32,000 nt of DNA from Crocosphaera subtropica ATCC 51142 (GTDB lineage Bacteria > Cyanobacteriota > Cyanobacteriia > Cyanobacteriales > Microcystaceae), in assembly GCF_000017845.1 (NCBI RefSeq), contig NC_010546.1, positions 3,870,001 to 3,902,000 of the forward strand. The letters run 5' to 3'. The position numbers and the translations under genes are program-made. Below, one piece after another: positions 6,251-32,000 of this stretch. Below the pieces are notes generated by a model. The model saw nothing but the letters and a program-made list of their open reading frames with translations. It ran no database searches and had not been told where the DNA came from. The first letter of the stretch is position 1. The number at the start of each line of letters is the position of its first letter.

Positions 6251-6649
6251 ATGAAGGTATTAAGGTGTCCTAAGTGTAGAGGAAAACTAGAACCAATTAT
6301 TTATGAAGGTATCGAAGTCGATCGCTGTTGTCAATGTAGTGGGATTTGGTTTGACTCCTCAGAAGCAGAAAACCTTAAAAAGCTCAGAGGTTCAGAAAAA
6401 ATTGATATTGGACACTTAAGTCAAAAAAATGACAAAGAAGTTTTAGAAACGGATGTGTTTTGCCCCCATTGTGATCTGGCCATGATCAAAATGTTTGATA
6501 TTGATAAACATCCTATTTGGTACGAAACCTGTCCTCAATGTCAAGGCATTTGGTTCGATGCCGGGGAATTCAAAAAATTTAAAGATAACTTTGCTCATCC
6601 TAAATTATTATCCAAAGCCTTGAATCTGTTTGGCTTTAAGAAAAAATAA
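6251..6649 (+). CDS. Duplicated TFIIB-type zinc-ribbon protein (zf-TFIIB-like)
   Basis: Two copies of CPxC...(E/D)xCxxCxGIWFD...E: CPKCRGKL...DRCCQCSGIWFDSSEAENL and CPHCDLAM...ETCPQCQGIWFDAGEFKKF. Confidence 0.7.
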   Translation: MKVLRCPKCRGKLEPIIYEGIEVDRCCQCSGIWFDSSEAENLKKLRGSEKIDIGHLSQKNDKEVLETDVFCPHCDLAMIKMFDIDKHPIWYETCPQCQGIWFDAGEFKKFKDNFAHPKLLSKALNLFGFKKK

Positions 6650-6773
6650 TCACTCTCGTGCAAAAAGTTAAAGGCGATACTTAACAATGTGTTTGAAAGT
6701 ACCGCCTTGGTTTTACCAATAATTAAATTTTGCTCTTGTCACCAAATTCTCTAACTCCCTGATAACACCAACC

Positions 6774-14696: not shown

Positions 14697-16301
14697 ATGA
14701 TCAACCCATTGATTTACGAAATTGGTACATTAATCCTTGTTTTAGGAGCTTCTGGTATCAACTATCGTCAGCTTCGTAACAGTCGTCTAAAACGAGAAGC
14801 AACCTTATTAAATCAACAAAAAGAGTTGACTCAAGAAAATGAGAATTTGAGCGAAAAATTACAGCAACTTGATAGTCTTAATGAAGAACTGAGACAAAAA
14901 AATAATAATTTACAACAAGATTATACTCATATTAAGCAACAAGTGACAGCTTTAGAGGAAAATGTTAGTCAATTGCACGACGAGAAAAACAATTTATCTA
15001 AGACGATTAAACAAGAACAAGATAAAGTTAATGTAGCTCAACAAACAAATCAATCGTTGCAGCAACAAAAAGAACAATTAGAAATAACTTATAAAAAAGA
15101 TTTATCTAACCTAGAACAAAAACTAGAAAGTCTTCAAAAAGATCAAGAGAAAACCAATACTCAATTACAAGAAACCAGTAAAAGCAATAATTCTTTGAAC
15201 CAAGAGTTAAAAACAATAATAGCTAAACGAGAAGAATTAGAAAATAGTTTAAACCGACAACAAGAAACTGTTGCTTCCTTAGAGAAACAACTAGAAACTG
15301 TATCTCAGGAGAAAAATAGTTTAGAGAAAGAACTACAACAGCGAATTAAAACGATTACCGAAGAAAAACAGTCTCTAGAAAATAGTTTAAATCAACAACA
15401 AAAAACTATTGCTTCCTTGGAGAAACAACTAGAAACTGTATCCCAGGAGAAAAATAGTTTAGAGAAAGAACTACAACAGCAAATTAAAACGATTACCGAA
15501 GAAAAACAATCTCTAGAAAATAGTTTAAATCAACAACAAGAAACTGTTACTTCCTTGGAGAAACAACTAGAAACTGTATCCCAGGAGAAAAACAGTTTAG
15601 AGAAAAAACTACAACAGCAAATTAAAACAATTACCGAAGAAAAACAATCTCTAGAAAATAGTTTAAATCAACAACAAGAAATCATCTCATCTCTAGAAAA
15701 AACACGGAAAACCTTAGAAAAAGAAAATAATAGCTTACAGCAAGAACAACAAGAAAGCCAAAAAGTTTATGATGAAAAAGATGAGCTTAAAAAACAACTC
15801 AAACAACAAGAAGAAATAGTTACAAAATTGCAAAATCAACTCAACACAATAGAACAAGAAAAAGAAACCGTCGAAACTCAGCTAAAACAAGAAATTGAGA
15901 AGATTGCTAAGGACAAAGAAAAGTCCAGTAAAGGTAAAATAGAAGAAACTGAAAATATTTCTGATGTAAATAAGAAAACTGAATCAGGAGAAAAAAAATC
16001 GAAAAAAAAAGCAGAAGAAAGCCAAGAAAAAATAAAAAATGAAATTATTTTAGAAGGAAAAAAACTGGTCGTAGTCGGTAGTCTTAATAGTATGAATAGA
16101 GAAATAGCCAAATCCTTAGTGCAACAAGCAGGAGGAACACTAACCAGTTCTCCAAGTTCTAGAACCCACTATGTTGTTGTTGGCAAAAACCCTGGAGACA
16201 AACTGAAAAAAGCACAAAAACTAGGAATTGCTCAACTGTCAGAAGACCAGTTTCTAGAAGCATTAGCAGCAACAGGAATAACAGAAATTAACCAGGAATA
16301 A
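14697..16301 (+). CDS. N-terminal TM anchor / ~400-aa coiled coil / lysine-rich linker / C-terminal BRCT-domain protein
   Basis: 534 aa. It has a hydrophobic N-terminus (IYEIGTLILVLGASGI), then Q/E/K/L heptad-rich sequence with tandem 46-aa repeats. The C-terminus GKKLVVVGSLNSMNREIAKSLVQQAGGTLTSSPSSRTHYVVVGKNPGDKLKKAQKLGIAQLSEDQFLEAL matches the LigA-type BRCT pattern. Confidence 0.8.
   Translation: MINPLIYEIGTLILVLGASGINYRQLRNSRLKREATLLNQQKELTQENENLSEKLQQLDSLNEELRQKNNNLQQDYTHIKQQVTALEENVSQLHDEKNNLSKTIKQEQDKVNVAQQTNQSLQQQKEQLEITYKKDLSNLEQKLESLQKDQEKTNTQLQETSKSNNSLNQELKTIIAKREELENSLNRQQETVASLEKQLETVSQEKNSLEKELQQRIKTITEEKQSLENSLNQQQKTIASLEKQLETVSQEKNSLEKELQQQIKTITEEKQSLENSLNQQQETVTSLEKQLETVSQEKNSLEKKLQQQIKTITEEKQSLENSLNQQQEIISSLEKTRKTLEKENNSLQQEQQESQKVYDEKDELKKQLKQQEEIVTKLQNQLNTIEQEKETVETQLKQEIEKIAKDKEKSSKGKIEETENISDVNKKTESGEKKSKKKAEESQEKIKNEIILEGKKLVVVGSLNSMNREIAKSLVQQAGGTLTSSPSSRTHYVVVGKNPGDKLKKAQKLGIAQLSEDQFLEALAATGITEINQE
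15231..15690 (+). repeat. In-frame 138-bp tandem repeat, ~3.3 copies, inside the coiled-coil CDS
   Basis: The marker GAAAATAGTTTAAA recurs at 15240, 15378, 15516 and 15654, an exact 138-nt (46-codon) period. The unit is LENSLNQQQETV(A/T)SLEKQLETVSQEKNSLEKELQQQIKTITEEKQS, with only a few substitutions between copies. Confidence 0.9.
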
Positions 16302-21512: not shown

Positions 21513-22940
<1,428 letters not shown>

Positions 22941-23079
22941 TCGGCTGGACTGTTAGTGGCCTAGAACTTTGTCCGAAATAATGACGAAAGAGTCAATGAA
23001 TGGGACAATGCTAAGAGTCTAACGGTCAAAAAACTCCATTACCTCTTTTTACTATAGAAAATCATTCTGCTTGTGCTGA

Positions 23080-24012
23080 ATGCTACAATTGCCTAAACGT
23101 CCCCAACCCCCAAAAATGCTGGTCTCCGTAGAAGAGTCCTATGAACGCTGTCGTCAGATTACCCAGAAATATTCAAAAACCTTTTATCTGGGAACCCTTT
23201 TAATGCCGTCGCAAAAACGACGGGCGATCTGGGCTATCTATGTTTGGTGTCGCCGTACCGATGAGTTAGTCGATGGTCCTCAAGCCAAATACACTACCCC
23301 AGAAACCTTACAACAGTGGCAAAATCATCTTGAATGTCTGTTTAAAGGTCATCCTATGGATGATGAAGATGTTGCCTTAGTGGATACGTTACAACGGTTT
23401 CCTGTAGAAATGAAACCCTTTGAGGACATGATCGCAGGACAACATATGGACTTGTACCGTAACCGTTATGAGACGTTTGAGGATCTCAAGCTTTACTGTT
23501 ACCGCGTCGCCGGAACCGTTGGCTTAATGTCTAACGCCGTCTTAGGCGTAGAAAAACAGCCTTCTATTGGCCCTTGGAATAAACAACTTGAAGACTATAT
23601 CCCCAAAGAAGAAGCGATCGCTTTGGGTATTGCCAATCAGTTAACTAATATTTTACGGGATGTGGGAGAAGATGCCCAACGGGGACGTATTTATTTACCC
23701 CTAGAAGATTTAGATCGCTTTAACTATACAGAAACAGACTTATTGAAAGGGGTCATTGACGATCGCTGGCGTGAATTAATGAGGTTTCAGATTCAAAGGG
23801 CCCGACAGTATTATAAAGAGGCAGAACGGGGTATTCGTATTCTTTCTAGGGACTCTCGTTGGCCAGTTTGGGCAGCTTTGATGTTGTATCAGGGTATCCT
23901 TGATGTGATTGAAGCGAATGATTATGATGTGTTTAATCAACGGGCTTTTGTACGGACTCCCCAAAAAATGGTTTATCTACCTATTGCTTGGCTTAGGGCC
24001 CAGGTACTTTAA
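23080..24012 (+). CDS. crtB: Phytoene synthase
   Basis: Squalene/phytoene synthase motifs YVWCRRTDELVDG and YCYRVAGTVGLM...LTNILRDVGED. It follows crtP as in other cyanobacteria. An alternative start is ATG 23116. Confidence 0.95.
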   Translation: MLQLPKRPQPPKMLVSVEESYERCRQITQKYSKTFYLGTLLMPSQKRRAIWAIYVWCRRTDELVDGPQAKYTTPETLQQWQNHLECLFKGHPMDDEDVALVDTLQRFPVEMKPFEDMIAGQHMDLYRNRYETFEDLKLYCYRVAGTVGLMSNAVLGVEKQPSIGPWNKQLEDYIPKEEAIALGIANQLTNILRDVGEDAQRGRIYLPLEDLDRFNYTETDLLKGVIDDRWRELMRFQIQRARQYYKEAERGIRILSRDSRWPVWAALMLYQGILDVIEANDYDVFNQRAFVRTPQKMVYLPIAWLRAQVL

Positions 24013-24634: not shown

Positions 24635-25813
24635 TTAATTAATTTCCCAATATTTACAAGTCGCATAAGCTAGGGTCACTACTCCAGTAATAATCGCAGA
24701 TTCATCAATGTCAAATAGAGGATGATGTAAGGGGTAATTAACTTTATCTTGATGTCCGACTCCTAAGCGAAACATGGTTCCTGGGGCGTGTTCTAAGTAT
24801 AAAGAGAAATCTTCTGCTCCCAAAGAAGGTTCTGGCAGTATCTCAACCTGATCGTTACCCCAAGCTTCTCGACAAGCACTTTCTAATATTTGAGTTAAAT
24901 TAAGATCGTTTTGAACTGAAGGAACCCCCCGACGATAATTGATTTCATACTTAGCATTGTAAGTATTACAAACATTGGCGATAATCCCTTCTATCCAGTC
25001 TGGTAAGTTGGCATGGGTTTCTGGATGTAGCGATCGCACCGTTCCGGCCATTCTCACATGATCAGCAATGACATTAGGTGCTCGGCCACCTGTAATTTGC
25101 CCAATGGTCAACACTAAAGGACGTAAAGGGTTCTGGGTACGACTAATGGCTTGTTGCAGGGTGGTAATCACCTGAGAGGCAATCCAAATGGCATCTACCG
25201 CCTCATGAGGACGTGCGCCGTGGCCTGACTCTCCTTTGATAAAGATTTCGATATCATCGGCTGCTGCGGTTAATGCTCCGTAACGAATGCCCACAGAACG
25301 GGCGTGAAGGGACGGAAATACATGAACCCCAAAAATGCCATCGACATCTCGCATCACCCCATCTTGCACCATCCAGCTTGCTCCCTGAGCAATTTCTTCA
25401 GCAGGTTGAAAGATAAAGCGAATGTTACCAGGTAAGTGTTCCCGTAACTGGGACAAAATCATAGCGGTTCCCAATCCTAGGGTGGTATGGACATCGTGAC
25501 CGCAAGCGTGCATCACCCCAGGTTTACAAGAGGCAAAGTCAAGTGGGGTCCGTTCTTCAATAGGTAAGGCATCCATATCAGTGCGGATGGCTAAAATTCC
25601 CTTATTCTTACCATTGCCCTCCAAATTACCCACAACTCCTGTTTTTCCTACGGCTTCTTGAACATGAAGGCCACAGGAGGAAAGAACTCCTGCTACATAG
25701 GCCGCTGTTTGGTATTCTTGCCCACTTAATTCGGGGTGGGCGTGTAAATGACGGCGTATTTCAATTAATCTCGGTGCGAGGTCTTCAGCGAGGGTTTTGA
25801 TTTGGGAGAGCAT
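24635..25813 (-). CDS. M20-family amidohydrolase (N-acyl-L-amino acid amidohydrolase / hippurate hydrolase type)
   Basis: 392 aa with the family pattern RRHLHAHPELSGQE, IRTDMDALP, MHACGHDVH and GTVRS. Confidence 0.9.
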   Translation of the reverse strand: MLSQIKTLAEDLAPRLIEIRRHLHAHPELSGQEYQTAAYVAGVLSSCGLHVQEAVGKTGVVGNLEGNGKNKGILAIRTDMDALPIEERTPLDFASCKPGVMHACGHDVHTTLGLGTAMILSQLREHLPGNIRFIFQPAEEIAQGASWMVQDGVMRDVDGIFGVHVFPSLHARSVGIRYGALTAAADDIEIFIKGESGHGARPHEAVDAIWIASQVITTLQQAISRTQNPLRPLVLTIGQITGGRAPNVIADHVRMAGTVRSLHPETHANLPDWIEGIIANVCNTYNAKYEINYRRGVPSVQNDLNLTQILESACREAWGNDQVEILPEPSLGAEDFSLYLEHAPGTMFRLGVGHQDKVNYPLHHPLFDIDESAIITGVVTLAYATCKYWEIN

Positions 25814-25894
25814 AGAAAATTGTCAGCATTTGGCATTATTTTAATGTTAGTATATTTTTTGTTATAATTTCTATAGTAATCCCTACAAGTATCA

Positions 25895-25915
25895 ACTATT
25901 AATAGTATTAATAGT
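25895..25915. promoter_or_regulatory. Perfect 10-1-10 palindrome (candidate operator) in the AT-rich leader of the FAAL cluster
   Basis: ACTATTAATA-G-TATTAATAGT. It also reads as a tandem TATTAATAG x2. A TGnTATAAT extended -10 match lies at 25860..25868. Confidence 0.35.
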
Positions 25916-26261
25916 ATTTTTTATCCTAATAATTTTCACTAGTTTATCTGGCAAATAATATATAATTCGTTTATTTTGTCAAGCACAAGGCAATAATTTA
26001 AGCTTAATTAGTATCAATTTTATTCGTCAATTTAGGAGTGACATATCAACTCATAATAAAGTTTTTATGGCATTAATAAAAATTTTATCTTACAACTCGA
26101 ACAGCTTAATCCCAGTCATAGCAAGGATTAGACTCTGATTACTCCCTTTATAGTCTGCGGCCGATGTAAGTGATTCACAAGTTTTTGACTTTCTCTTTCT
26201 AGGATACGACCAACAACAGTTAAAAACCCTAACTTAACTATGGTGCGAGGCTAAGAAAATT

Positions 26262-28091
26262 ATGTATTTGTATGACGATAATAGAAGAGGCTCAGTCCCC
26301 TTTAAAACAACGAACTTACCCTTGTGGGGGCATTCCTCTGAGCAAAATTTAGTTCGTATTCTACAACAAAGAGCCAATTATCAACCTTCAAAAACAGCCT
26401 ATATTTTCTTAGACCGTGGTGAAAGTGAACAGTGTTCCTTAACCTACGAAGAATTAGACAAAAAAGCCAGAGAACTCGCTGCAATTCTCTGTAACTCTCA
26501 TTTACAAGGGGAAAGAGCTTTATTGATGTATTCTCCTGGTATTGATTTTATTATTGCTTTTTTTGCTTGTCTCTATGCTGGTGTCATTGCTGTTCCCATC
26601 TATCCCCCTCGTCGAAATCAATCCCTCGACAGACTAAAAGCTATTATTGATGATTGTCAAGCCAAAGAAGTTTTGACGACCAGTTCCATTAAAAATAATC
26701 TAGAAAATAGCCTAATTAAGTATCCAGAATTAGCTCATTTTCAGTGGATAGCTACGGATAATTTACCCACCAGAATCAATGCTCATGACTTTCAACCCGT
26801 CAGAATCGATAAAGATGATCTTGCTTTTCTACAATATACCTCTGGTTCCACTGGTAATCCTAAAGGCGTGATGGTGAGTCATGGTAACTTAATCCATAAT
26901 GAGTGTATGGTCAAACAAGCATTTGGACATACAGAGCAAACAATTTTTGCAGGATGGCTACCGTTATTTCACGATATGGGACTCATTGGTAATGTACTAC
27001 AACCCTTATATTTAGGTATTCCTTGTATTTTGATGTCTCCTGTTGACTTTTTACAAAAACCCTATCGTTGGTTAAAAGCCATTTCCGATTACCGTGCTAC
27101 CACTAGCGGAGGTCCCAATTTTGCTTATGACTTGTGTATTCAGAAAATTACTGATGAACAACTGAAGACCCTGAATTTGAATAGTTGGGAAGTTGCTTTT
27201 AACGGGGCTGAACCGATACGGGCTGAAACCTTAGAAAAATTTGCCCAGAAGTTCGCTCCCTGTGGTTTTCGTAAAGAGGCTTTCTATCCTTGTTATGGAA
27301 TGGCTGAGGCCACCTTATTTATCACTGGTGGAATGTCATTTAATGCCCCCAAGTACAAAACAATAGACGAAAAAGCTTTAGAAGAAAATCAAGTTGTTGA
27401 AGTTGAAAGACAAAAACCCTATAGTCGAACCTTAGTCAGTTGTGGCCACGAATGGTTAGAACAAACAATCAAGATTGTTAATCCCCATTCTTTAACCGAG
27501 TGTAAGAATAATCAAGTGGGAGAAATTTGGGTATCGGGAGGAAGTGTTGCCAAGGGTTATTGGCAAAAACCTGACAAAACCAAAGAAACCTTTGAAGCTT
27601 ATTTATCTGACACAAAAGAAGGTCCGTTTCTAAGGACGGGAGATTTAGGGTTTCTCTCATCAGAAAAAGAACTCTTTGTTACAGGAAGACTCAAAGATGT
27701 CATGATTATTCGAGGACGCAATCATTATCCTCAAGATATCGAATTAACTGTTGAGCAAAGTCATCCTGCTTTAAGATCCAGTTGTGGGGCTGCTTTTGTT
27801 GTGGGCAATACGGGTAATGAGAGATTGATTATTGTTCAAGAAGTTGAACGAACCTATTTACGAAAACTGAATCAACAGGAAGTCACAAGTGCTATTCGTC
27901 AAGCTGTCGCTAAACATCACGGTTTACAAGTTCATGAAGTGATTTTGATTAGAACAGCAACCATTCCCAAAACTTCCAGTGGAAAAATTCAACGTTATCG
28001 TTGCAAAGAACAGTTTTTAAAGCAGATGCTCGATTATTTACCCTCAAACTCTTCCTGTTCAACTCAGGTTACCCTAAAAAGAACCGCTTGA
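26262..28091 (+). CDS. Fatty acyl-AMP ligase (FAAL; acyl-ACP synthetase type adenylation enzyme)
   Basis: 609 aa. The adenylation core YTSGSTGNPKG is encoded at 26835..26867. Further motifs are GLPCILMSP-type, YGMAEATL, the FAAL-typical ...LVSCG... segment after an inserted stretch, GDLGF, GRLKD and PKTSSGKIQR. A stand-alone ACP and a PKS lie downstream. Confidence 0.9.
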   Translation: MYLYDDNRRGSVPFKTTNLPLWGHSSEQNLVRILQQRANYQPSKTAYIFLDRGESEQCSLTYEELDKKARELAAILCNSHLQGERALLMYSPGIDFIIAFFACLYAGVIAVPIYPPRRNQSLDRLKAIIDDCQAKEVLTTSSIKNNLENSLIKYPELAHFQWIATDNLPTRINAHDFQPVRIDKDDLAFLQYTSGSTGNPKGVMVSHGNLIHNECMVKQAFGHTEQTIFAGWLPLFHDMGLIGNVLQPLYLGIPCILMSPVDFLQKPYRWLKAISDYRATTSGGPNFAYDLCIQKITDEQLKTLNLNSWEVAFNGAEPIRAETLEKFAQKFAPCGFRKEAFYPCYGMAEATLFITGGMSFNAPKYKTIDEKALEENQVVEVERQKPYSRTLVSCGHEWLEQTIKIVNPHSLTECKNNQVGEIWVSGGSVAKGYWQKPDKTKETFEAYLSDTKEGPFLRTGDLGFLSSEKELFVTGRLKDVMIIRGRNHYPQDIELTVEQSHPALRSSCGAAFVVGNTGNERLIIVQEVERTYLRKLNQQEVTSAIRQAVAKHHGLQVHEVILIRTATIPKTSSGKIQRYRCKEQFLKQMLDYLPSNSSCSTQVTLKRTA

Positions 28092-28240
28092 GGAAAAAAT
28101 AATTTTTCTAGAGTTGTTAATCCTCGAATCGAAGAAACTCTCAGTCAAACAATGCTTACTCAAAAAAGTCAATATTTAGGTGTTAATTTTTTGAAGTGTC
28201 TGGGAATTATAAATTTGTAAGTTTACAAGTTTGTGATTCT

Positions 28241-29167
28241 ATGACTTCCTCAACGGTACAACCATCACTCACTGTATCCAGTGCTTCTCTGGGAAAAACT
28301 AAAAGACGATTCATTATTAGTTTAAGTATTGTGTCTTTAGTTGGTTTTTCTCTGGCAATATATCAAGTTTTCACTACTCGGATTGGACTTCTAGAAATTA
28401 GTCTTTTCCTATTAATGAGTGCTTGTAGTGCTATTGGAATAACAGTTGGTTTTCATCGTTATTTTTCCCATAAAGCCTTTAAAACTACCCGAACCATAGA
28501 GATTATTCTAGCGATTCTTGGTTCTATGGCTGGACAGGGTTCAGTCACTTCCTGGGTTTCAGTTCACCGTTGTCACCACAAATACAGCGATCAGTTAGGA
28601 GATCCCCATTCCCCTCATTTACATGGAGAAGGATTGCGGGGTAGAGTATTAGGGCTATGGTATGCTCATCTCGGCTGGCTATTAAATGACGATCTTCCTA
28701 ATTCTTTGGTGTTTGCTAAGGACATGATACAAGATCGGACAATGGTAGTCATCAATCGTTTCTATATCCTATGGCTGGCTTTAGGTTTATTGATTCCTGC
28801 AATGTTAGGAGGACTCTTAACTGGCACTTGGCATGGTGTTTTCCAAGGATTTATTTGGGGTGGACTCGCTAGATTATTTTGGACATTCCATAGTGGTTAT
28901 ACCATTAATTCTGTTGCTCATGTGTTTGGAAACAGCTTTTTGAAAAGTGATGATAACAGTAAAAATAACTTATTGTTAGCCCTTCCAACTTATGGAGAGG
29001 GATGGCATAATAATCACCATGCTTTTCCTCAATCGGCTAAGTTTGGTTTAAAATGGTGGCAAATTGATTTAGGCTATTGGTTTATAAAAGTTCTACAATG
29101 GATAGGTCTAGCTTGGGATGTCAAAATTCCTAGCAATGAAATGATCGAAGCTAAAAAAATTGTTTAA
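28241..29167 (+). CDS. Membrane-bound fatty acid desaturase, Delta9/DesC-like histidine-box family
   Basis: Three His boxes: HRYFSH (28454..28471), HRCHH (28565..28579) and HNNHH within GEGWHNNHHAFP (29006..29020). It has four hydrophobic helices. The track ORF begins at GTG 28196; ATG 28241 (MTSSTVQ...) is the more plausible start. Confidence 0.9.
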   Translation: MTSSTVQPSLTVSSASLGKTKRRFIISLSIVSLVGFSLAIYQVFTTRIGLLEISLFLLMSACSAIGITVGFHRYFSHKAFKTTRTIEIILAILGSMAGQGSVTSWVSVHRCHHKYSDQLGDPHSPHLHGEGLRGRVLGLWYAHLGWLLNDDLPNSLVFAKDMIQDRTMVVINRFYILWLALGLLIPAMLGGLLTGTWHGVFQGFIWGGLARLFWTFHSGYTINSVAHVFGNSFLKSDDNSKNNLLLALPTYGEGWHNNHHAFPQSAKFGLKWWQIDLGYWFIKVLQWIGLAWDVKIPSNEMIEAKKIV

Positions 29168-29243
29168 TGCCCAACCAATAAAGACAATTGGTTAGTCTTA
29201 AGATATTTTACATTCTTAACCCACTTATTTAGGAGAAAAAATT

Positions 29244-29522
29244 ATGAATTCTCAACAACCCACTGTTTCTGATCCCCAAAAATCCCCTAGTTATTCTGAA
29301 ATTGAAGCTTGGTTAATCTCTTATTTATCTAAACTGTTAGAAGTTGACCCTGAAACCATAGACGTTAACAACACATTTGAAAGCTATGGTCTTGATTCTT
29401 CAGCATCTGTGGGCTTAAGTGGAGATTTACAAGAATGGTTAGAAACCGATCTTGATCCCACCCTATTATTTGATTATCCTACCATTGACAGTTTATCCCA
29501 TTACTTAGCAGAAAATGATTAA
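29244..29522 (+). CDS. Stand-alone acyl carrier protein (PP-binding)
   Basis: 92 aa, acidic. The phosphopantetheine attachment motif is GLDSS, with the Ser codon at 29397..29399. An AGGAG Shine-Dalgarno lies upstream of the ATG. Confidence 0.85.
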   Translation: MNSQQPTVSDPQKSPSYSEIEAWLISYLSKLLEVDPETIDVNNTFESYGLDSSASVGLSGDLQEWLETDLDPTLLFDYPTIDSLSHYLAEND

Positions 29523-29641
29523 TGGATTCAACAACTGATTAGTTTAGCTAATTATAATGTATTTTCTTTTAAGAATTGTCAGGATAACATAGAAAGTTAA
29601 TGGCATTAGAAACAGCTAAATCAAAGTCCAGGGATTGTATA

Positions 29642-29682
29642 GAAATTCAATGATCATTTACCGTAAACGAGCATTGAATTTC
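29642..29682 (+). other. Perfect 11-bp-stem hairpin in the ACP-PKS intergenic gap
   Basis: GAAATTCAATG (29642..29652) / CATTGAATTTC (29672..29682) with a 19-nt loop. No U-tract follows it. Confidence 0.5.
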
Positions 29683-29772
29683 TCCCCTGATCTCAGTTGA
29701 TTCCTTGGTTTGTATGGGTTATATATTGATGCTCGGAGATATCTCGGAATTTCCGATGATATAAAAAAGGTT

Positions 29773-32000
29773 ATGGTAGAACATATTGCAATTATTGGTC
29801 TAGGCTGTCGCTTCCCCCAAGCTAACAATGTAGAATCTTTCTGGCAATTGTTAAAAGGAGGTAAAGATGGCATTAGAGAAGTTCCGCCAGAACGCTGGAA
29901 CGTAGATGATTTTTATGATCCTCAACCGATAACCCCAGGAAAAATGAGTACCCGCCGGGGAGGGTTTCTCGATCAGGTGGATCAATTTGATGCTGGCTTT
30001 TTTCAAATTTCACCACGGGAAGCTGAACAAATTGATCCTCAACAAAGATTATTCTTAGAAGTGGCCTGGGAAGCTTTAGAAAATGCAGGACTCATTCCTA
30101 GTCAACTGTCTGGTACTCAGACTGGCGTGTTTGTGGGAATTAATAACAGCGACTATAATCGCATGAGTTGGCAAGATTTCGATTCGCTCAATGCTTATAG
30201 TGGAACAGGAACAGATGTGTGCATTGTTGCCAATCGTTTATCCTATTTTCTCAATCTCAAAGGACCCAGCCTAGCGATTAACACCGCTTGCTCTTCTTCT
30301 TTGGTAGCTATTCATTATGCTTGCCAAAGTTTACGGCTTCATGAATCAAATCTCTGTCTTGCTGGAGGGGTGAGCTTAATTCTGTCTCCAGAAGTAACGA
30401 TCGCCTTTTCCCAAGGCCGAATGATGGCTGCGGATGGTCGTTGTAAAACCTTTGATGCGTCCGCTGATGGCTATGTTAGAGGAGAAGGATGTGGTGTCAT
30501 TGTTCTTAAACGCTTATCCGATGCTCTAAAAGATGGGGATCAGATTCAAGGGATTATTCGGGGATCGGCAGTTAATCAAGATGGCTTAACCAATGGACTT
30601 ACTGCCCCCAACGGCCCATCTCAACAGGCCGTCATGGGTCAAGCCCTCAAAAATGCTAACCTACAACCCCACGAAATTAGTTATGTCGAAGCCCACGGAA
30701 CCGGAACCCCGTTAGGAGATCCCCAAGAATTTAGATCAATTACCACGGTCTTGAAACAGGGAAGACAACCAGAACAAACCTGTTGGGTGGGTTCGGTAAA
30801 AACCAATATTGGCCATCTAGAGTCAGCTTCAGGTATCGCTGGTGTCATTAAAACCGTTCTCTGTCTTCAACATCAAACTATCGTTCCTCATCTTAATCTC
30901 AACCAACTGAATCCTTATATCTCCCTAAAAAATATTCCGTTCACCATTCCCCAAGAATGCACTCCCTGGACAATTACAACGGAAAAACGCTGGGCTGGCG
31001 TTAGTTCCTTTGGCTTTGGGGGAACCAATGGCCATATCATTTTAGAAGAACCCCCTTCCTCTGAGTTAACAGCAACCTCTCAAGAGCAAAAACCTCACTC
31101 TTTAGACCATCCTTATCATTTATTAACCCTTTCAGCCCAAAGCAAAGAAGCTTTACAAGCTTTGGTTAAACGGTATCAAGATTTTCTCAACACACATCAG
31201 GCCGTTGCCCTCCAAGATGTATGTTTCACAGCTAATACGAAGCGATCGCAGTTTGAACATCGACTAGCTATGGTAGTCGGTTCTTCTAAAGAATTACAGC
31301 AACAATTAGCCACTTTAATCAACCACCCAGAAGAATCGGCCATTCGAGCCATAGCCCGTCCCCGTAAGTCCCCTAAAATGGCTTTTATGTTTACAGGGCA
31401 AGGTTCACAATTTGTGGGCATGGGACAGCAATTGTATCAAACTTCTTCTTTCTATCGTCAAATTATTGATGAGTGCGATCGCTTATTACAACCTTACTTA
31501 GAAAGGTCTTTAATAGATATTTTGTATGAGCAAACAGAAAATAGTCTTTTAGATCAAACAATCTACACCCAACCTGCTTTATTTTCTCTCGAATACGCTT
31601 TAGCTAAACTATGGCAATCTTGGGGTGTAAATCCTGTTGCGATGATGGGACACAGTGTAGGAGAATATGTGGCTGCTTGTTTAGCAGGGGTATTTAGTCT
31701 CGAAGATGGACTCAAACTCATTGCCTACCGAGGTCGTTTAATGCAAGCTTTGCCTGAAAATGGGGCAATGGTAGCTGTTTTTATTTCTGAAAAACAAGCC
31801 CAAGCTTTGATTGAATCCTATGGAGACAAGGTTGCTCTTGCAGCCATTAATGGCCCCAATAGTGTGGTAATTTCAGGAGAAAGGGATAGCATTCAAACCT
31901 TAATCACCACATTCGACAGCCAAGGCATTCAATTTAAAGAGTTGCAAGTGTCCCATGCTTTTCATTCTCCCCTCATGAAACCCATGTTGGCAGAATTTGA
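29773..32000 (+). CDS. Type I polyketide synthase, partial (KS-AT..., continues past the right window edge)
   Basis: Hand translation from ATG 29773 gives MVEHIAIIGLGCRFPQANNVESFWQLLKGGKDGIREVPPERW.... KS motifs: TACSSS (Cys codon 30289..30291), EAHGTGTPLGD and NIGHLESASG. AT motifs: FMFTGQGSQFVGMG, GHSVGE (Ser codon 31654..31656) and HAFH (31954..31965), which indicates malonyl specificity. The frame is open to 32000. It is absent from the ORF track because it is edge-truncated. Confidence 0.95.
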   Translation, partial: MVEHIAIIGLGCRFPQANNVESFWQLLKGGKDGIREVPPERWNVDDFYDPQPITPGKMSTRRGGFLDQVDQFDAGFFQISPREAEQIDPQQRLFLEVAWEALENAGLIPSQLSGTQTGVFVGINNSDYNRMSWQDFDSLNAYSGTGTDVCIVANRLSYFLNLKGPSLAINTACSSSLVAIHYACQSLRLHESNLCLAGGVSLILSPEVTIAFSQGRMMAADGRCKTFDASADGYVRGEGCGVIVLKRLSDALKDGDQIQGIIRGSAVNQDGLTNGLTAPNGPSQQAVMGQALKNANLQPHEISYVEAHGTGTPLGDPQEFRSITTVLKQGRQPEQTCWVGSVKTNIGHLESASGIAGVIKTVLCLQHQTIVPHLNLNQLNPYISLKNIPFTIPQECTPWTITTEKRWAGVSSFGFGGTNGHIILEEPPSSELTATSQEQKPHSLDHPYHLLTLSAQSKEALQALVKRYQDFLNTHQAVALQDVCFTANTKRSQFEHRLAMVVGSSKELQQQLATLINHPEESAIRAIARPRKSPKMAFMFTGQGSQFVGMGQQLYQTSSFYRQIIDECDRLLQPYLERSLIDILYEQTENSLLDQTIYTQPALFSLEYALAKLWQSWGVNPVAMMGHSVGEYVAACLAGVFSLEDGLKLIAYRGRLMQALPENGAMVAVFISEKQAQALIESYGDKVALAAINGPNSVVISGERDSIQTLITTFDSQGIQFKELQVSHAFHSPLMKPMLAEF

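Follow-up and report, generated by a model that had tools for sequence, protein, structure and literature searches.

A starter cassette of JamABC type joined to a single-module polyketide synthase in Crocosphaera subtropica ATCC 51142: a probable pathway to unsaturated 3-oxo lipids

What kind of compound is made from four genes, all on the + strand, which encode a fatty acyl-AMP ligase (FAAL), a membrane desaturase, an acyl carrier protein (ACP), and the first part of a type I polyketide synthase (PKS)? The question is raised by positions 26262-32000 of a window of 32,000 nucleotides from Crocosphaera subtropica ATCC 51142 (the whole stretch analysed here, positions 3,870,001 to 3,902,000 of contig NC_010546.1), which ends inside the PKS gene. 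The answer favored here, with a probability of roughly 0.6, is that this region holds the first two thirds of an orphan biosynthetic gene cluster, a compact one consisting of cce_3758-cce_3762 and possibly cce_3763, in which a starter cassette of the JamABC type known from jamaicamide biosynthesis serves a single-module pathway to a 3-oxo lipid. The substrates, the product, and every chemical step of this pathway are predicted from sequence.

The proteins of the locus are exact matches to ACB53106-ACB53111 (cce_3758-cce_3763) of C. subtropica (formerly Cyanothece sp.) ATCC 51142, the four genes of the region corresponding to cce_3758-3761, and RefSeq already labels the six products as fatty acyl-AMP ligase, acyl-CoA desaturase, acyl carrier protein, type I polyketide synthase, methyltransferase, and NAD(P)/FAD-dependent oxidoreductase. 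A first-pass annotation, made from the letters of the window alone, had described a FAAL, a desaturase with three His boxes, a 92-residue ACP with a GLDSS site, and a PKS with a KS carrying the catalytic Cys and an AT carrying HAFH, all in one direction, and each of these is found where it was placed. The FAAL gene (cce_3758, ACB53106; 26262-28091, + strand) occupies the JamA position and codes for a stand-alone enzyme of 609 amino acids, recognized by Pfam and NCBIfam models, which combines an AMP-binding domain with a DIP2-like C-terminal domain and matches the NCBIfam fatty-acid--AMP ligase models with E-values of 1e-142 to 1e-118. Its best solved structure is 7R7E (660 bits), to which it aligns over its full length, the FAAL-specific insertion region included; 7R7E is the FAAL domain of the olefin-synthase (Ols) PKS of Picosynechococcus PCC 7002 (PMC11837247). 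At the JamB position follows a membrane di-iron acyl desaturase (cce_3759; 28241-29167, + strand; Pfam FA_desaturase), which measures 308 amino acids from the ATG at 28241, the length given in RefSeq (WP_009545084) and shared by the homologues, and 323 from the alternative GTG at 28196, as in GenBank (ACB53107). The intergenic distances of 104, 76, and 250 bp given earlier are correct for the GTG start, the first of them becoming 149 bp with the ATG start. The desaturase contains the three His boxes HRYFSH (28454-28471), HRCHH (28565-28579), and HNNHH (29006-29020) together with three long hydrophobic segments; its relatives in the PDB are the stearoyl-CoA desaturases 4YMK and 4ZYO, and it is annotated as COG1398/K00507, the acyl-CoA/Delta9 desaturase family. 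The third gene (cce_3760; 29244-29522, + strand), at the JamC position, encodes the stand-alone ACP of 92 amino acids (Pfam PP-binding, E = 7e-16), whose phosphopantetheine-attachment serine lies within the GLDSS motif at 29388-29402. The PKS gene (cce_3761, WP_009545082; 29773-32000, + strand) starts with the ATG at 29773 and continues past the end of the window, its full product being 1264 amino acids long. The domain matches of these four proteins are strong and hence not chance features.

The sequence beyond the window was taken from five contigs (L001-L005) from public sequencing runs, which agree with the window at 100% identity over 2.9-4.8 kb. As an observation on the source, positions 1-23 of contig L001 consist of Illumina adapter sequence (CCCTACACGACGCTCTTCCGATCT); the adapter abuts window position 28199, 42 nt 5' of the ATG of the desaturase gene. 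In the complete PKS, as read from L001 with Pfam, a KS (residues 3-425), a KS-AT linker, an AT (538-845), an ACP (923-1007), and a TE (1034-1251) follow each other; the KS corresponds to 29779-31047 and the AT extends from 31384 to the window end, with the ACP and TE beyond it. The KS carries TACSSS (30283-30300), HGTGT (30694-30708), and NIGH (30805-30816), and thus a Cys-His-His triad. The AT contains GHSVG (31648-31662) and HAFH (31954-31965) as well as a YTQPALF context, motifs which are typical of malonyl-specific AT domains. The complete PKS is devoid of KR, DH, ER, methyltransferase, and sulfotransferase domains, and zero sulfotransferase matches are found in the PKS or in the neighboring genes. 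The enzyme is a single non-reducing module with the order KS-AT-ACP-TE, intact to its end. The refuting outcome named in the first-pass annotation, a continuation that is pseudogenised or without more PKS or release domains, is therefore not what the extended sequence shows. Of the two continuations considered in the first-pass annotation, the Ols-type series KR-ACP-sulfotransferase-TE is contradicted by the full PKS, which contains neither a KR nor a sulfotransferase, and further PKS or nonribosomal peptide synthetase (NRPS) modules, as in the jamaicamide or carmabin pathways, are equally absent, the next genes coding for a methyltransferase and a flavin monooxygenase.

The TE of the PKS is a member of the type II family, and the solved structures nearest to it are those of RifR, the human medium-chain fatty acid synthase thioesterase (TE2), and 3QMV/3QMW (RedJ), followed by TesA of M. 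tuberculosis; RifR, TE2, and 3QMV/3QMW are type II thioesterases hydrolyzing acyl-ACP. Among 1.8 billion representative sequences, such TEs occur as free proteins of about 250 amino acids and as C-termini of PKS and NRPS, including other KS-AT-ACP-TE proteins.

From these components, the following sequence of reactions may be proposed. The FAAL would adenylate a free fatty acid, for which a medium chain is a guess, and load it onto the 92-residue ACP, where the desaturase would act on the bound chain as JamB and TtuB do, an assignment suggested by homology and synteny. Desaturation may generate a terminal alkene or alkyne or else an internal double bond, the omega-terminal position being favored by analogy. 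The KS would then condense the chain on the ACP with a single malonyl unit, for which the HAFH-type AT selects, and so lengthen it by two carbons, and a 3-oxoacyl thioester would be left on the ACP of the PKS because the module lacks KR, DH, and ER domains. The fused type-II-like TE is expected to hydrolyze this thioester to the 3-oxo acid, which would probably be stabilized by the S-adenosylmethionine (SAM)-dependent methyltransferase encoded next, either as methyl ester or as 3-methoxy-enoate (enol ether), while the unmethylated acid would lose CO2 and yield a methyl ketone. The likely product is therefore to be sought among an unsaturated 3-oxo acid, its methyl ester, and the derived methyl ketone.

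The view that the desaturase belongs to the cassette is based on its relatives. A neighbor-joining (NJ) tree without support values was calculated from 93 non-identical desaturases of the superfamily from the fetched loci, a profile-search sample spanning the whole Delta9 superfamily, with JamB not among its sequences. The Crocosphaera desaturases fall into a cyanobacterial clade whose members, among the matches listed, all have FAAL and ACP genes on either side; lone desaturases from Planctomycetes and Actinobacteria are placed in clades of their own. This supports cce_3759 as a cassette-associated rather than a housekeeping-type desaturase, and the protein families, the gene order, and the NJ grouping all agree with the earlier proposal of a JamABC-like order feeding a type I PKS. 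The nearest desaturases from outside the genus are 62-63% identical and, again among the matches listed, part of the same FAAL-desaturase-ACP cassette, which feeds a KS-AT-KR-ACP protein plus an NRPS in Chroococcus sp. FPU101 and a reductase/acyltransferase lipid pathway in Nostoc sp. DedSLP04 (L088) and a JGI metagenome contig (L094), the desaturases of the latter two being 63% identical. Modular PKSs likewise stand behind more distant cassettes (desaturase identity 47-51%), namely those of Moorena producens PAL, Tolypothrix, Pleurocapsa, and a marine metagenome-assembled genome (MAG), with loci L007, L008, and L009 among the examples. The example from M. producens PAL (P0048, desaturase 51% identical) shows the context FAAL-desaturase-ACP-PKS, and in L007 (47%), the marine MAG, an FMO-like gene is inserted between ACP and PKS, which is the order of jamABCD-E, with the FMO-like gene at the jamD position. 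The FAAL-desaturase-ACP cassette is thus a portable starter module combined with various downstream machineries. JamB is known to work on JamC-bound acyl chains (PMC7063234, PMC8341276), and JamB and TtuB form terminal alkynes on C6 and C10 chains (PMC8341276). The first-pass annotation overstated its case in calling the genomic context unusual, as cassettes of the jamABC type are known from more than 80 operons (PMC8341276) and have been surveyed in 29 cyanobacterial genomes (PMC8406139), and the genes themselves are annotated in RefSeq.

The two lipid-type loci show some further features of their own. In L088 (7993-18688) and L094 (8209-14274) alike, the cassette is followed by a TubC_N-docked thioester reductase and a PlsC-type acyltransferase; L088 additionally encodes an alkyl-DHAP-synthase-like FAD oxidase, a short-chain dehydrogenase/reductase, a CDP-diglyceride synthase, a CDP-alcohol phosphatidyltransferase, and a phosphatidylserine decarboxylase, and L094 a CDP-alcohol phosphatidyltransferase. 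Both gene sets have the look of a pathway devoted to an unusual unsaturated lipid, either an ether lipid or a phospholipid.

A view on other Crocosphaera sequences shows that the order of a divergent M20 peptidase gene followed by FAAL, desaturase, ACP, PKS, methyltransferase, and flavin monooxygenase recurs in three more lineages, represented by MAGs and metagenomes, which brings the total to four, whereas the flanks past the monooxygenase vary between lineages. The amino acid identities of the other lineages relative to ATCC 51142 are 79-83% for FAAL, 68-84% for the desaturase, 68-81% for the ACP, 79-80% for the PKS, 86-91% for the methyltransferase, 86% for the monooxygenase, and 90-92% for the M20 protein. 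Apart from one desaturase gene, all open reading frames (ORFs) of the cluster are intact, with ratios of non-synonymous to synonymous substitution rates (dN/dS) of 0.05-0.29, compared with about 0.05 for the M20 gene. Because dN/dS is low and dS is similar in the cluster and its flank, these values indicate that the cluster is vertically inherited and under purifying selection.

The exceptional lineage is represented by the metagenome contig JAAUYD010268345.1 (L101), in which a clean internal deletion at 6366-6754 has left only codons ~7-22 and 285-305 of the desaturase gene, while the ORFs for FAAL, ACP, PKS, methyltransferase, and monooxygenase have stayed intact, with dN/dS values of 0.07-0.17. 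The same contig carries an ORF of 904 amino acids inserted between the M20 and FAAL genes (L101 1415-4129, minus strand). Because the desaturase was lost there and the rest of the cluster kept, the enzyme is an optional tailoring step which is not essential to the cell, and a role as the only housekeeping Delta9 desaturase is disfavored.

Several observations weigh against the proposed pathway or parts of it. The identity of about 60% between cce_3758 and the FAAL domain of 7R7E, which handles long chains, would be equally compatible with a substrate of long chain length and ordinary internal desaturation, and the JamB-like assignment of cce_3759 stands on synteny and an NJ tree without bootstrap values. 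The class I SAM methyltransferase of 275 amino acids, which follows the PKS after a gap of 113 bp, is 75-91% identical within the Crocosphaera cluster and 53-58% identical to its nearest homologues from outside the genus, which are situated in unrelated gene contexts; its AlphaFold model (pLDDT 91.8) retrieved only generic class I methyltransferases for small molecules from the PDB with Foldseek, and its role in the pathway is suggested solely by conserved adjacency. Orthologues of the flavin monooxygenase encoded next are found in housekeeping contexts without FAAL or PKS in Gloeothece PCC 7424 and Calothrix NIES-2098. Finally, scans for promoter-like and terminator-like sites yielded no more matches than expected from shuffled sequences and lend no support to co-transcription. 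Contig L002 spans the genes from FAAL to monooxygenase, and if the runs SRR26036484-88 are RNA-seq data, it would document read-through across the cluster.

The alternative that survives best, less probable than the main reading but a serious one as regards the regiochemistry, retains the same cluster logic and assumes ordinary regiochemistry: a C14-C18 chain would receive an internal cis double bond as in Delta9 desaturation and be converted to an unsaturated 3-oxo acid, ester, or methyl ketone of long chain length, no terminal alkene or alkyne being formed. Apart from the FAAL identity just mentioned, it is favored by the affiliation of cce_3759 with the stearoyl-CoA (Delta9) desaturase superfamily and by the closest cassettes from outside the genus, which feed phospholipid-like pathways and would use long chains. 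On the other side, the characterized enzymes of FAAL-desaturase-ACP cassettes, JamB and TtuB, produce terminal alkynes on C6 and C10 chains (PMC8341276), and a single residue of the FAAL hints at a shallower acyl pocket. In the segment of residues 231-246 (window 26952-26999; ...HDMGLIGNVLQPLYLGI), the position aligned with A229 of the Ols enzyme is occupied by Ile; it is Phe in the L090 sequence and Phe or Ile in most cassettes feeding PKS/NRPS lines. Ols and the two lipid-type cassettes, L088 and L094, have Ala there, and the same A229 was changed to Ile in the Ols FAAL of PDB 7R7G. The residue may act as a chain-length gate, with Ile as a weak hint at a shorter pocket by an unpublished criterion that is itself weak. 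We know of no sequence signature for acetylenase activity.

If the JamABC-type reading with omega-terminal desaturation is taken to its furthest consequence, the locus would represent the smallest natural JamABC-dependent pathway, in which five genes of a unicellular diazotroph with well-studied genetics make a 3-oxo ester or methyl ketone with a terminal, clickable alkyne as a volatile or diffusible infochemical, and the L101 allele would produce the saturated congener. This version is doubtful and offered as a conjecture; if true, alkyne-tagged beta-keto building blocks would become accessible by a minimal, portable route.

The position of the cluster boundary depends on the flavin monooxygenase (cce_3763; 463 amino acids; L001 6449-7840), which is located just past the window, 115 bp behind the methyltransferase gene and before a convergent PhoH/PIN gene. 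The enzyme is a class B flavoprotein related to flavin-containing (FMO) and Baeyer-Villiger (BVMO) monooxygenases, and its best solved relative is the flavin-dependent monooxygenase of entries 8Z12-8Z17 (E = 6e-61). It may be imagined as a tailoring enzyme, either a single-component halogenase similar to Bmp5 or JamD that halogenates a terminal alkyne, or a Baeyer-Villiger enzyme with the 3-oxoacyl intermediate as its substrate, so that a halo-alkyne or an ester would result. Its direction and its adjacency to the cluster in all four lineages are in line with such a function, as are its relationship to FMOs and BVMOs, the UniRef label 4-hydroxybenzoate brominase (Bmp5-like) on one of its orthologues, and the nature of JamD as a single-component flavin-dependent alkynyl halogenase (PMC11725856). 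A tailoring role is nevertheless improbable. Orthologues with 70-76% identity occur in very many cyanobacteria across many orders, including the two strains without FAAL or PKS named above, and the divergence pattern of the enzyme is closer to that of the flanking M20 protein than to those of the core PKS genes. At the jamD position, L007 carries an FMO-like gene, which would speak for a tailoring role, but the product of this gene is only 25% identical to the monooxygenase. Because its orthologues sit in housekeeping contexts of other cyanobacteria, the monooxygenase is probably a conserved neighbor rather than a tailoring enzyme.

Still less probable is a condensation of the FadD32/Pks13 kind, in which the fatty acyl chain would undergo a head-to-head Claisen reaction with a second, long-chain carboxyacyl unit, and the resulting branched beta-keto lipid would be transferred by the TE to an acceptor. 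The stand-alone ACP followed by KS-AT-ACP-TE does reproduce the domain order of Pks13; on the NCBIfam Pks13 model, positions 3-77 are matched by the ACP and those from 101 onward by the PKS, and the FAAL matches FadD32 models. Yet the score of 738 bits against mycolic_Pks13 stays far from the cut-off of 2100 and below the 1213 bits obtained with a generic cyanobacterial modular-PKS model, the AT motifs GHSVG, HAFH, and YTQPALF are of malonyl type, and the nearby genes do not include an acyl-CoA carboxylase.

An olefin synthase of the Ols/CurM type distributed over split genes, which would convert the extended chain to a terminal alkene hydrocarbon by beta-hydroxy reduction, sulfonation, and decarboxylation, shares the FAAL, ACP, and KS-AT front end and has the closest solved FAAL in its favor, but is excluded by a complete PKS without KR and sulfotransferase, the distinctive domains of that pathway (PMC3903477), and with a TE of the type II kind. 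A merely coincidental adjacency of four functionally unrelated genes, with the desaturase as housekeeping Delta9 lipid enzyme, could invoke the family annotation COG1398/K00507 and the housekeeping genes around the cluster, but has next to no credibility in view of the close desaturase relatives, all located between FAAL and ACP among the matches listed, the loss of the desaturase from the otherwise retained L101 cluster, the entire gene order conserved under purifying selection, and the Delta9 genes of the sister strains CCY0110 and WH8501, which are shorter (about 825 nt) and of the DesC type, a clade different from that of JamB (PMC2593844).

The spacer between the ACP and PKS genes (29523-29772, 250 bp) was compared in an alignment of the four Crocosphaera lineages. 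Its last ~45 nt, directly 5' of the PKS ATG (29730-29772), are kept in all of them and contain the palindrome TCGGAA-T-TTCCGA (29744-29756), which is degenerate in L101, whereas the rest of the spacer is variable or deleted between lineages, its middle part being missing in L090. A terminator-like site was searched for on the + strand of the spacer, and none was found. The conserved block may be a leader or a regulatory site and is most likely the 5' leader of the PKS gene with the ribosome-binding region. An N-terminal extension or docking domain of the PKS encoded in this block is ruled out by an in-frame TAA in L092, where it is non-coding.

Upstream of the FAAL gene, an AT-rich divergent intergenic region of 448 bp (25814-26261), as read from the sequence, is presumed to contain the promoter of the cluster, and the promoter-like matches within it stay within shuffled expectation. 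It is followed on the other side by the gene for an M20-family amidohydrolase/peptidase (24635-25813, - strand; Pfam Peptidase_M20 and M20_dimer), which is transcribed divergently and probably represents a conserved upstream neighbor outside the pathway. The remaining window consists of housekeeping genes, namely crtP-crtB, gnd, coaE, genes for glycosyltransferases and a LysR regulator, and the M20 gene. The pair coding for phytoene desaturase (a crtP-type amine oxidase) and phytoene synthase is located at 21513-24012 (+ strand), about 2 kb upstream of the cluster, and is followed by an opposite-strand DUF2141 gene, an ordinary housekeeping context. Further away, an ORF of 534 amino acids (14697-16301, + strand) encodes a long coiled coil with a C-terminal BRCT domain and is contained in a stretch with a GC content of 0.295 and an AT skew of +0.47, far off the window average. 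The cluster itself, with GC values of 0.36-0.41 compared with 0.386 for the window, is not atypical, and a foreign origin was dismissed, as the GC content gives no sign of recent horizontal transfer. Searches of the window gave zero Rfam matches and zero tRNA genes.

The PKS/NRPS clusters of ATCC 51142 were catalogued in 2014 as orphan families shared only with ATCC 51472 (PMC4247773). The literature search found no paper naming cce_3758-3762 and nothing specific on the cluster, and the supplements of the polyyne survey list neither Cyanothece nor Crocosphaera. The cassette, its logic, its wide distribution, and the annotation of the genes are already known; the uncharacterized aspect is the combination of one desaturase with a non-reducing module carrying a fused type-II-like TE and with a methyltransferase. 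The parts, their order, and their logic do not constitute a new class of biology. If the proposed pathway is true, the FAAL-desaturase-ACP starter serves a one-module beta-keto lipid pathway in addition to large lipopeptide lines and polyyne clusters, the host is a model marine nitrogen-fixing cyanobacterium, and the five-gene set may become handy for the heterologous production of unsaturated, possibly alkyne-tagged, building blocks, with the L101 lineage as a ready natural comparison for the absence of the desaturase.

The proposed chemistry combines features of several known systems. In the methyl-ketone pathways of tomato (ShMKS2/ShMKS1) and E. coli (FadM), hydrolysis of a 3-oxoacyl thioester yields an unstable 3-oxo acid and then the methyl ketone; these routes involve unrelated thioesterases of the hot-dog fold and substrates from fatty acid synthesis or beta-oxidation instead of a dedicated PKS module. 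The FadD32-Pks13 mycolic acid condensase exhibits the same formal order of a FAAL followed by ACP / KS-AT-ACP-TE, whereas the Crocosphaera cluster has its first ACP on a protein of its own, an AT of malonyl type, and a TE that is a type II enzyme and not a trehalose acyltransferase. With the Ols/CurM systems, the cluster shares the front end of FAAL, ACP, and KS-AT, including a FAAL ~60% identical to the Ols domain, but it contains a desaturase gene and no KR, sulfotransferase, or CurM-type TE. The polyyne clusters for cepacin (ccn), caryoynencin (cay), collimonin, and protegencin (pgn) likewise employ FAAL loading of an ACP, thiotemplated desaturation, and TE release of a free lipid acid (PMC9828172, PMC8406139), but encode three desaturases, a rubredoxin, and a stand-alone TE without any chain extension, compared with one desaturase, no rubredoxin, and a TE fused to a KS-AT-ACP module in cce_3758-3762. 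The closest likeness in families, order, and orientation is that to JamA/JamB/JamC of the jamaicamide pathway of Moorena producens JHB and the homologous CamABC, VatABC, and TtuABC, including the location of the cassette directly upstream of a type I PKS with a catalytic-Cys KS. In place of the long PKS/NRPS line with an HMG-CoA-synthase cassette of the jam pathway, however, a single non-reducing module with its own TE is found here, and the gene for a JamD-type halogenase, which lies between ACP and PKS in the jam cluster, is absent from that position.

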